Below are positions 36,001-39,000 of a stretch of 48,288 bases of DNA, piece after piece (position 1 is the first letter of the stretch; every line of letters begins with the position of its first letter). The stretch comes from a virus. Its lineage: Duplodnaviria > Heunggongvirae > Uroviricota > Caudoviricetes. A program made the position numbers. The stretch is taken from IMG/VR virus record IMGVR_UViG_2923307698_000006. One strand, given 5' to 3'.

Positions 36001-39000
36001 TGCTGGAATGTGCGGGACGGACGCGGTGGCCGTTCGGAGTAAGGGAGCCTGACGGAGATTATCCAGTGACGGTAGTCGAGGCTAAGGGCTTTTTTAACCT
36101 CGCATCCGCGCCTGCGGTAACACTGAATGAGCCATTCGGCCTGTTCTTCAGTGCATGGGGGATGCTGGTACCAGTCAGATTTGAATGCGTGAAAACACCG
36201 TCCGCGCCTGCTGGCAAAGACGGCAGAATCATCAGAATTGTATAATTTGGTATCGTGCGCCATCGGTTGTCTCTGCTGGCGCAGCAGGTGCCAGTTGTTC
36301 AGGCTGGCGTGCGAATTGTAAACCAGAATGCCAGGAAAAAACAAAACCCGCCGAAGCGGGTTAAGTGCGGGTGCGTTGAGGATGCCTGATTCATCAGAGG
36401 TGGCGAGGGATTTCTCCCTCGCCGGGTCTCTTACTCCTCAGGTTCGTAAGCTGTGAAGACAGCGACCTCCGTCTGGCCGGTTCGGATTCGTACCTCGCAG
36501 AGGTCTTTCCTCGTTACCAGTGCCGTCACTATGACGGTGATACAGATGACGATCAGGGCGATTAACATCGCCTTTTGCTGCTTCATAGCCTGCTTCTCCT
36601 TGCCTTTCGGCGCGTAAGAGGCTAACCTACATATGTCTAGCATGAAATTGGCCTCAGATTAATGTTAGGCGTCTTGCAGGACGCGTAATGTTAACTGGGG
36701 CTTTTCTCTGTCTGCCTTACGGTGGCATGCCCGAGGCAGACAGCCTCAAGCACCCGCAGCAATTCTACTTAACTCTCGCTTTACCGCAAACCGTTTTTAC
36801 CCGATATGGGAATTCCCATATCGTAATGAATTCAGTTCCCTAGTCGATCCATCAAAAACACAACCAGGCAGTAAACGCCCACAACAGCAATAACAGCCAG
36901 AGCACCTTCCATTGCCAGTGAAATATCATCCGACATATTCCCTCCTTTGGTGTGAATCCCGGCGAACGTTTTTACCCCCACCGACAAATAACATATACTA
37001 AAAAATCAATAGCTATAGCAACGCCTGTAATTGCAAAGGCTTCAGGCCAGATCATTGGCGCACCTCCTGCGGCGGTTCTGGTAGCGGCATCCAGTCGGTT
37101 ACATTGCGGCTCTGTGTTTCGAAAAATTCATCACCATTACGGACTACATCAAAAAACTCACCGTCTCGATATTGCGCATAAAGAACGAATGCGCCATCAC
37201 ATAAAATAATTACGTGCTGACCATCATCCGGCATTCGCTCACTACAGCTTATCCAACCATCCGGAGTTACCGGATAGTTGGTTGACGTTTCCGAGATTTC
37301 CCGAAAATTATTGGTTGACGAACCCTTATTTTCCCGAAAGTTTCCAGCCTGAAGCATGGCGGCGCTGTCTGGCGGGGCAGCATATAGCGGCACGTATATT
37401 TCCGGTTCCTTATCAGCACCGGGTTGCTCTTCCAGTGAGAATGTCTTTCCGGTAAATCGATTCATATAAAGCACGGGCTCTGCTTCCAGCGAAGCCTGAG
37501 CAACAAGGGCCAGTGCTAAATCCAACTCAATTGCCTCGAGAGAATTTTTGAATACTGTCTGTTTTACTGCAAATTTCATCGCCTTTACATTTTCACTAAC
37601 ATGACTGATTAACTGCTCTTTTGTAAAAGTGATCATCTCATTCTCCTTTGATGCGAATGCCAGCGACAATTGAAGCCTGATAGCTAATTCACTCACAGTA
37701 CCGCCTCCTGAAAATTGCCCTGATAGAACGCCAGTACACGCAGCATAACTTCACTCTTCCGGCACTCGCCAAAGATTATGTTCTGTTGTCTGTCGTAGCG
37801 GCGTATTTCTCCGTCTGGTAACTTTCGAATCAATGTCTGGTCGGTTGCTTTCTCCGCTGCCTTACGCCATACGCGATACACCTGTTCTGATGTAAAAACA
37901 CCGTATTTACCGGGCATGTATAAATCGCCACAAGCCAGTACATCCACAAGGCAACGTCTGACTGAATGCCAGCCTGCTCCCGTCGCTCTCTCCAGTTGTG
38001 ATATCGTCATGCGTTCATTTTTGCGTACCAGCCCGATAATTCGGGCCTTCAGTTCTTCACGCTGTTCGTGTGTAAAAGGTTTCGCCATAAGCGCCTCCGG
38101 CTATCACTTTTCCGATACAACACGGCGGGAAGAATCAGTAATCTGTCGAACAATATCCCGGTGCTTGTTCAGCTCCCGCAGCGCGGCGCAGACTCGCTCC
38201 CACTTCTGAACATCACTTTTCGCCCTGCGCAGCGCCAGGTTTGCCCTGCGCAGGGACGGAAAAATCAGCTCATCTGCTTGCGTTTCGGTAAACGATAGCA
38301 ACGGCTGCACAATGTCCGCCACAGTTTCTGTTTTAATTTCTTCCTGTGTTGCGGCTTCCCGGACTGGTAACGCAGCACCTGCTGGCTGAGGAAAGGCCTT
38401 ACCATCATTTTTCGTTACCGGCGCGGCTTTCGGATCTGCTGGTAAATTACCCCCCGACATGCAGTAACGAAATTTACCGTTCTGATTAACGCGTGCCAGC
38501 CGCCCCGTTGCGGTTACCACCGCCAGCGTGGAAGCAACCTTGCGAGTACTGACGCCGAACTTACCCGCCAGTTCCTCACACGTTTTAGCACCATCCTGAC
38601 CGATAAACTCAACCATCATGTCTGCGGTAACTTTTGGAGCGACCTCTTCGGTTACCACATCCGGCGCTTCAGGTTGTAGTGCCTGCCCTTCGGTTACCCC
38701 GGCTTCACCTTCGACAGCCAGAAACCAGGTGTGACCCGTTTTATCAACAACGCCATTTTTTTTGAGTTCCCACAGTTCGTTAAGAACTTCTTCACGGCTG
38801 ATATCAAGCCGCGCCGCCAGTTCAACAGAATTGGCTTTTCCCATCGCTTTCAGTGCATGCAATACAGTTTCCATCGAAAATTTACCTCGTCAAAAATTCT
38901 CACATACCCTGACGTCCAACGTTTGACCGCCAGCTCTCCCAGTTAAAATTCACCCAACGACCACCATTCATGGTCATACGGTCCATCACCCGATCTCCGA

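Follow-up and report, generated by a model that had tools for sequence, protein, structure and literature searches.

DUF1627, Ren-like DUF977 and DUF551 genes between a helicase loader and hok form a frequent but separable combination of catalogued prophage gene families

We analysed IMG/VR virus record IMGVR_UViG_2923307698_000006, a stretch of 48,288 nucleotides (nt) from a virus of the Caudoviricetes (hereafter the window, meaning the stretch at its full length), with a focus on a trio of minus-strand genes between a DnaC-like helicase loader and hok. Three open reading frames (ORFs) are present there, at 38104-38874 (256 amino acids, aa), 37693-38088 (131 aa) and 37052-37696 (214 aa when read from a GTG), just where a preliminary description, made from the sequence alone, had placed three uncharacterised proteins of the nin region. 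Each ORF scores far above the cut-off of a Pfam family, and all three are genuine genes. The idea that they are a notable uncharacterised trio finds no support, because all three fall into families that have been catalogued before, and RefSeq already contains annotated identical proteins (WP_000450874.1, WP_001118159.1 and WP_000627694.1). We regard it as very nearly certain that the locus combines a YdaW/DUF1627 gene, a Ren-like/DUF977 gene and a mosaic DUF551 gene, and that these can be separated from one another. In order of transcription, the three genes are as follows.

38104..38874, minus strand: YdaW-family protein, DUF1627, 256 aa (PF07789, E = 1.9e-98; phrog_630, E = 5e-130)
37693..38088, minus strand: protein assigned to the lambda Ren family, DUF977 ('LygF' in some records), 131 aa (PF06163, E = 8e-72; phrog_142)
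37052..37636, minus strand: DUF551-domain protein, probably 194 aa (PF04448, E = 7e-21); an alternative GTG start at 37696 gives 214 aa

The 256-aa protein matched PF07789 with 327.1 bits against a cut-off of 28.1, its residues 91-245 covering the full profile (positions 1-155). It is 58% identical to YdaW of the Rac prophage of E. coli K-12 (b1361) over residues 1-154 (E = 2e-58), a region that spans both winged helices described below. The K-12 gene likewise lies directly after the DnaC-like ydaV, in a RacR/YdaS/YdaT module. Judged by this similarity and by its position after a ydaV-like loader, the 256-aa protein is the full-length counterpart, or orthologue, of K-12 YdaW. The K-12 protein has 186 aa, its alignment ends at residue 154 and it lacks the C-terminal DUF1627 helix, whereas the copy in the window is full length. 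We take the shortening in K-12 to be due to the Rac deletion.

Structure prediction agreed with the two winged-helix-like segments that had been noted in this protein. An AlphaFold2 model, built on a 38-sequence alignment reaching down to 21% identity, contained winged helix-turn-helix (wHTH) domains at residues 1-52 and 84-139, both with a predicted local distance difference test (pLDDT) above 92, and a long helix at residues 208-255. Two disordered acidic linkers join the wHTH domains and the C-terminal helix, which is basic (net charge +8); the second wHTH domain has an isoelectric point (pI) of 9.2. The same architecture is found across the whole of this small family, which makes up 161 clusters at 50% identity in a set of 1.84 billion proteins. 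Foldseek matches of the model in PDB and BFVD were generic single or tandem winged-helix proteins (E of at least 8e-4 or 3e-5, template modelling score about 0.2), and the weakly scoring folds included ScpB, ESCRT-II, SelB, Z-alpha and MarR/ArsR.

Three observations concern the spread of DUF1627. A search of contigs with a closer DUF1627 alignment gave matches in E. albertii only, its patterns being too specific to show taxonomic breadth. A DUF1627 gene in PP818812.1 ('Actinobacillus phage vB_Apl-pPE4') is 83% identical to that of the window in DNA and 78% in protein, unexpectedly close for a phage with a Pasteurellaceae host. Finally, one IMG/VR locus (L028, 4214-4985) carries a frameshifted DUF1627 gene, in pieces of 142 aa and 72 aa, within an otherwise intact block, from which it follows that the gene can decay while its neighbours stay.

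The 131-aa protein belongs to DUF977 (PF06163, 240 bits against a cut-off of 22.1) and matched phrog_142, 'Ren-like exclusion protein', with E = 5.9e-43. BLASTP aligned it with lambda Ren (NP_040633) at E = 9e-8, and a profile of 33 DUF977 proteins matched Ren with an hhalign probability of 95.8% (E = 8e-9). On the strength of these comparisons, the protein is a homologue of lambda Ren. The two proteins have a homologous wHTH and a homologous C-terminal block with the pattern N-x-x-F-x-E-C-R-x-S-x-x-M-x-R-V-L-A-x-Y, and their genes are placed alike in the early-right operon, where each ends the replication module. They differ in length, with 96 aa in lambda and 131 aa here, where an insert separates the wHTH from the C-terminal block. 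They also differ in setting: the gene in the window is set off from a DnaC-type loader by DUF1627, whereas in lambda the loader is of the lambda-P type and P overlaps ren.

The DUF977 protein is basic (pI 9.6). Its most conserved stretch, LPDGEIRRYDRxxNIIxxECRKSEVMxRVLAFYQGNF, is the same part that is shared with lambda Ren. Across the DUF977 alignment, the C-terminal block is near-invariant, in contrast to the wHTH half, of which there are several distinct versions. The AlphaFold2 model had a confident N-terminal wHTH and a pLDDT of 45-63 over the invariant C-terminal block. Such poor prediction of a conserved segment would fit a block that probably takes up its fold on a partner. Foldseek returned nothing at E < 1 for this model. 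We also asked whether the second wHTH of DUF1627 and the wHTH of the Ren-like protein could be paralogues, but the hhalign probability was only 27%, which we took as generic wHTH resemblance.

Nomenclature in this part of the locus is confusing. Phage records label the DUF977 gene 'LygF', a name that carries no function, and 'YdaW' is attached to two families across sources. By direct comparison, K-12 YdaW is a DUF1627 protein and not a DUF977 protein. The double use of YdaW is an easy route to annotation mix-ups.

The third protein contains a full-profile match to PF04448 (75.3 bits against a cut-off of 22) at residues 147-210 of its 214-aa form, in line with the DUF551-like C-terminus that had been reported for it. 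Its previously given length of 214 aa corresponds to an ORF read from the GTG at 37696, but a 194-aa protein is more likely. RefSeq starts the gene at the ATG at 37636, which is preceded by an AAGGAG Shine-Dalgarno sequence, and PHROG profiles 660 and 5117 begin exactly at this methionine (Met21 of the longer form). Related loci are identical over the 57-nt upstream stretch and do not decide the choice of start. The start also bears on the claim that the genes are tightly packed and partly translationally coupled. Packing is indeed tight upstream: the loader and the 256-aa gene lie 25 nt apart, and the 256-aa gene, with its tandem TGA TAG stops, is followed by the 131-aa gene after 15 nt. Coupling of the third gene would depend on a 4-nt GTGA overlap that exists only with the GTG start; with the ATG at 37636 there is a 56-nt gap to the 131-aa gene, and coupling there is unproven.

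With a pI of 4.5 and a net charge of -14, the DUF551 protein is strongly acidic, and it is itself a mosaic of an N-terminal module, an 11-aa tandem duplication and the C-terminal DUF551 domain. The duplication arises from a 33-nt tandem repeat at 37278-37342, 75% identical between copies, and places the peptides FRENKGSSTNN and FREISETSTNY in the linker before the DUF551 domain. The same C-terminal domain of about 65 aa is found in YfdS of prophage CPS-53, in the Ea22 variant V2 of Shiga toxin (Stx) phages and in EaA-type proteins, and the acidic character is shared with the reported C-terminal domains of Ea22. In contrast, the N-terminal part is unlike that of YfdS, Ea22 and EaA-type proteins, and the gene occupies a nin-side slot rather than the early-left ea region. 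No Pfam Ead_Ea22 match was found at E <= 0.1; the DUF551 module alone is common to this gene and Ea22-type genes. Apparent matches to ubiquitin in a PDB sequence search were discarded because they were inflated by repeats and had a per-domain E above 9.

We quantified how often the three genes occur, together and apart, with megablast against 5,426 complete E. coli genomes, counting a gene as full when at least 80% of the query was covered. The DUF1627 gene had a match in 2,354 genomes (1,571 at full coverage), the DUF977 gene in 1,125 (468) and this DUF551 gene in 2,466 (381). The whole trio was present in 380 genomes, making the DUF1627 gene about four times commoner than the trio. The close agreement between 381 genomes with this DUF551 allele and 380 with the trio implies that the allele travels almost only with the trio, while DUF551 modules at large are widely scattered, and a single genome can have them in as many as 11 places. 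DUF1627 and DUF977 were each found in 24 of 50,697 phage records, with 12 records containing both, 12 DUF1627 only and 12 DUF977 only. Modules of the DUF551 protein occurred in 456 phage records, mostly as partial matches, with full-length relatives in 26.

Exact-sequence look-ups revealed ten contexts in which the block of loader, DUF1627, DUF977, DUF551, a 34-aa ORF and hok is unchanged. These contexts differ upstream, in immunity and initiator genes, and downstream, in nin/Q genes. In more distantly related phages only part of the block is present. Stx phage POCJ13 and phage 683R6 have the loader, DUF1627 and the Ren-like gene followed by unrelated cargo; PPompW phages have DUF1627 behind a lambda-P-type loader with no Ren-like gene; and mEp460 has the Ren-like gene directly after the replication gene with no DUF1627. 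DUF1627 thus follows either a DnaC-like or a lambda-P-like loader.

To describe gene order more broadly, we took the 80 best IMG/VR loci anchored on DUF977, 75 of which had enough upstream sequence. These loci are phylogenetically non-independent and biased toward Escherichia, and the counts describe the sample rather than population frequencies. In 56 of the 75, the Ren-like gene came directly after DUF1627 (a frameshifted copy adds one more locus); in 10 it came directly after a DnaC-like loader, and in 8 after a loader of the lambda-P family, the last matching PF06992 at E = 8e-16 and being 25% identical to lambda P. Directly downstream, a DUF551 gene was present in only 16 of 77 loci, and hok followed the Ren-like gene at a distance of 1.1-4.7 kilobases (kb), with a median interval of 2.4 kb. 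What stays constant is the Ren-like gene, which ends the replication module whichever of three unrelated loader arrangements precedes it. DUF1627 is often inserted between the loader and the Ren-like gene, and the stretch from the Ren-like gene to hok can hold many alternative cargoes, of which the DUF551 gene is one.

Allele identities of DUF1627 and DUF977 were only loosely correlated (Spearman 0.45), and discordant pairs such as 88%/62% and 58%/98% imply recombination between the two genes. Identities of DUF1627 and the loader were correlated more closely (Spearman 0.70, n = 35). In genomes, phage records and loci alike, the genes co-occur but also stand apart, and no obligate three-gene unit was found. 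The trio is a frequent mosaic combination, and it represents an ordinary, well-populated lambdoid prophage mosaic whose parts are already known as sequence families.

We also considered gene fusions as possible evidence of a joint function. DUF1627 and DUF977 share a reading frame and are separated by TGA TAG and 9 nt (38088-38106). One candidate fusion (P0079) was a frameshift artefact. Two others (P0035 and P0276, from loci L104 and L105) were in-frame read-throughs in which both stops are replaced by sense codons (GL or RL), each found in one contig, with one of the assemblies fragmented. We judged them too weak to serve as Rosetta-stone evidence.

Structure prediction and neighbourhood analysis, both proposed as checks in the preliminary description, gave two wHTH domains with a C-terminal helix and a trio that comes apart. 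The same description had reasoned that its view of the trio would be refuted if the genes were ubiquitous in lambdoid prophages, in varying contexts, and carried no catalytic or sensing domains. This is largely what we found: in E. coli prophages the genes turn up very often and in varied contexts, and no catalytic, sensing or known-defence domain was detected in the three proteins with Pfam, NCBIfam, PADLOC and PDB sequence searches or in fold searches of the DUF1627 and DUF977 models. The variation in context is nevertheless not random, as both DUF1627 and the Ren-like gene keep to the 3' end of the replication module. Past helix-turn-helix (HTH)-level similarity, the trio gave nothing in NCBIfam, in PADLOC or in PDB sequence searches. 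There was no significant match in PADLOC-DB v2, where the best hits (E of 1e-5 to 2e-2) were to HTH segments of CARF/Csa3/CasR-type models and the DUF551 protein had zero matches, or in the PDB for any of the three proteins. Overall, the trio looks like separable, non-enzymatic binding proteins.

The surroundings of the trio place it within a recognisable prophage. The neighbouring features that bear on its context are as follows.

41489-41965, plus strand: RacR repressor
41392..41421, minus strand: candidate early-right (pR-like) promoter, TTGACA-18-TAATAT, 10 of 12 positions matching, upstream of the ydaS-like gene (consensus match only)
38900-39640, minus strand: DnaC/IstB-like helicase loader, YdaV-like (Pfam IstB_IS21, E = 1.5e-19, and Bac_DnaA; 'ATP-binding protein' in RefSeq)
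36972-37055, minus strand: possible 27-aa hydrophobic ORF, MIWPEAFAITGVAIAIDFLVYVICRWG, unannotated in RefSeq and of uncertain status
36832-36936, minus strand: 34-aa hydrophobic ORF, MSDDISLAMEGALAVIAVVGVYCLVVFLMDRLGN, 'hypothetical protein' in RefSeq
Downstream of the trio: hok (Pfam HOK_GEF, E = 2e-23)
36581-36755: sok antisense RNA (Rfam, 114 bits)

Along the minus strand, the order is YdaS-like, YdaT-like, an HTH_36 initiator, the DnaC-like loader directly upstream of the 256-aa gene, the trio, the 34-aa ORF, hokD, a 92-aa ORF, DUF968, RusA and Q. E. coli O103:H2 12009 carries a 99.9% identical copy, whose RefSeq annotation agrees with this order. By these neighbouring genes, the element is a Rac-type lambdoid prophage. 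The trio constitutes delayed-early genes that lie where the replication module ends, on the side away from the promoter, in the slot that in lambda holds ren and the start of nin. The earlier statement that these are accessory genes in a nin-equivalent region, with no experimentally assigned biochemical function, stands. Base composition varies within the trio, the guanine-plus-cytosine (GC) fraction being 0.445-0.48 over 37000-37800, which covers the DUF551 gene and the 3' half of DUF977, against 0.52-0.56 in DUF1627 and the replication genes. This drop suggests that a mosaic junction lies within the trio.

Two small ORFs adjoin the trio. The 34-aa ORF lies between the DUF551 gene and hok, just upstream of hok/sok, in all ten close contexts. 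The start ATG of the 27-aa ORF overlaps the DUF551 stop codon (ATGA), and the ORF may encode a translationally coupled small membrane peptide. Rfam detected further small RNA (sRNA) genes at gathering level elsewhere in the prophage, at 30121-30376, 43160-43211 and 14259-14382 (AgvB (anti-GcvB) beside STnc100, DicF, STnc490). According to a 2026 preprint, loci for the PasA/PasC sRNAs are commonly found at most 10 kb from RusA, TerB and DUF1627 genes.

Apart from the pR-like candidate, the minus strand has no good sigma-70-like site from 41600 to 36300. By consensus matches, there are no minus-strand terminator-like sites ahead of 36881 and 36362, that is, none until past the trio. A single promoter-like site and no terminator before the end of the trio fit joint transcription with the replication genes once the prophage is induced, and fit less well the expression in the lysogen that would be typical of a moron. 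Accordingly arranged, the trio appears to be transcribed together with the replication genes only after induction or infection. A scan for repeats in and around the genes found no operator-like motif; the repeats that were found are peptide duplications in coding sequences.

What the proteins do can be approached through lambda Ren and a few relatives. Toothman and Herskowitz reportedly found in 1980 that lambda ren mutants are sensitive to Rex exclusion. In a two-hybrid assay, lambda Ren interacted with the Rex proteins, and it was described as 'likely involved in DNA replication' (10.1101/2021.04.19.439022). K-12 ydaW emerged from an overexpression screen as a hit that blocks the retron-Sen2 toxin RcaT (10.1101/2020.06.22.160242), which is the only functional lead for YdaW, and the DUF551 protein YfdS, with YfdQR, contributes to suppressing replication over-initiation (PMC4776307). 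Taken together, the Ren-Rex data, the ydaW/RcaT hit and the role of YfdS favour a function in shielding or modulating the phage replication machinery. The basic Ren-like protein would bind DNA or a partner in the replication complex through its variable winged helix and conserved C-terminal block, and the YdaW protein, with two winged helices, flexible acidic tethers and a basic C-terminal helix, may act in a similar manner. Both would most likely modulate or shield phage replication in the way that lambda Ren acts against Rex exclusion, and the acidic DUF551 protein would be independent, swappable cargo, possibly a protein-binding or DNA-mimic-like accessory. We hold this counter-exclusion mechanism for the Ren-like and YdaW proteins only tentatively. 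The explanation as a whole, with identity, organisation and role combined, has in our estimate an even chance of being correct.

Several points weigh against counter-exclusion. The likeness to lambda Ren is remote, at 30% identity over 87 aligned positions, and no rexAB homologue is annotated beside the repressor in the closest RefSeq relative, so that any target of exclusion is only putative. The ydaW/RcaT result is a high-throughput overexpression hit obtained with a truncated protein. Furthermore, linkage behind the loader could mark the boundary of a recombination module rather than a function, and the winged helices could equally well belong to ordinary transcription factors. A broader version of counter-exclusion, wherein YdaW and Ren-like proteins make up a widespread post-loader counter-defence module of lambdoid phages, strikes us as improbable. 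Such proteins would keep replication intermediates or proteins from triggering abortive infection systems, whether of the Rex type or retron toxins like RcaT, with the variable winged helix tracking different sensors and the invariant C-terminal block binding a conserved partner.

Other explanations draw on much of the same evidence. YdaW and Ren-like proteins might be direct replication accessory factors that tune helicase loading or origin remodelling through the loader, DnaB, the initiator or origin DNA. Their strict position behind three non-homologous loader arrangements, apparent co-transcription with replication genes and basic wHTH domains would suit this role, as would the correlation between DUF1627 and loader alleles (although it may reflect mere physical linkage) and the interactions of Ren and O with Rex in the Thomason preprint cited above for a replication role of ren. 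However, lambda ren is dispensable for growth (PMC10695390), both genes come and go among otherwise similar replication modules, and pairing with unrelated loaders speaks against a loader-specific partner; we consider direct accessory factors unlikely. The wHTH folds could instead make DUF1627 and DUF977 ordinary transcription regulators that bind operators and control delayed-early, late or host genes. Weak matches to ArsR/MarR/DeoR-type profiles and the inclusion of YdaW among predicted E. coli transcription factors (PMC9308461) point this way, and the variable DUF977 wHTH sequence would suit changing DNA specificity. Yet the genes and their surroundings contain no notable operator-like motif, whether repeated or palindromic, there is no adjacent regulated promoter, tandem wHTH domains on long disordered linkers fit scaffolds such as ScpB, ESCRT-II and SelB equally well, and the C-terminal block rather than the wHTH is the most conserved part of DUF977. 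We would be somewhat surprised if ordinary regulation were the main role.

The trio might also be a prophage moron in which three genes make up a cassette for anti-phage defence or of the toxin-antitoxin type, considering that the region holds variable cargo and adjoins hok/sok and that other phages have candidate defence-like genes in the same slot. We find this very hard to credit. The best PADLOC match (E about 1e-5) is not significant and falls on generic HTH segments, the proteins have no effector or enzymatic domain and their genes also occur separately. With neither a promoter-like site nor a terminator of its own, the trio is probably silent in the lysogen, and two of its three genes belong to the end of the replication module rather than to the cargo slot.

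The cargo slot itself is diverse. Between the Ren-like gene and hok, phage 683R6 has an S8 peptidase, an FtsH-like ATPase and a kinase fragment, and mEp460 has a reverse-strand ORF of 449 aa with no Pfam match. The corresponding slot in PPompW phages contains a Paa adhesin.

As it stands, the finding matters little, in that it re-identifies three catalogued and very common prophage gene families. It does clarify naming: 'YdaW' of K-12 is DUF1627, and the lambda Ren family is DUF977, also called 'LygF'. New accessory or defence genes may be better sought in the slot of 1-5 kb that holds variable cargo between the Ren-like gene and hok than in the trio. If counter-exclusion by the Ren-like and YdaW proteins were true, it would provide a function for a 45-year-old lambda gene and for two DUF families that a large proportion of E. 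coli genomes carry.

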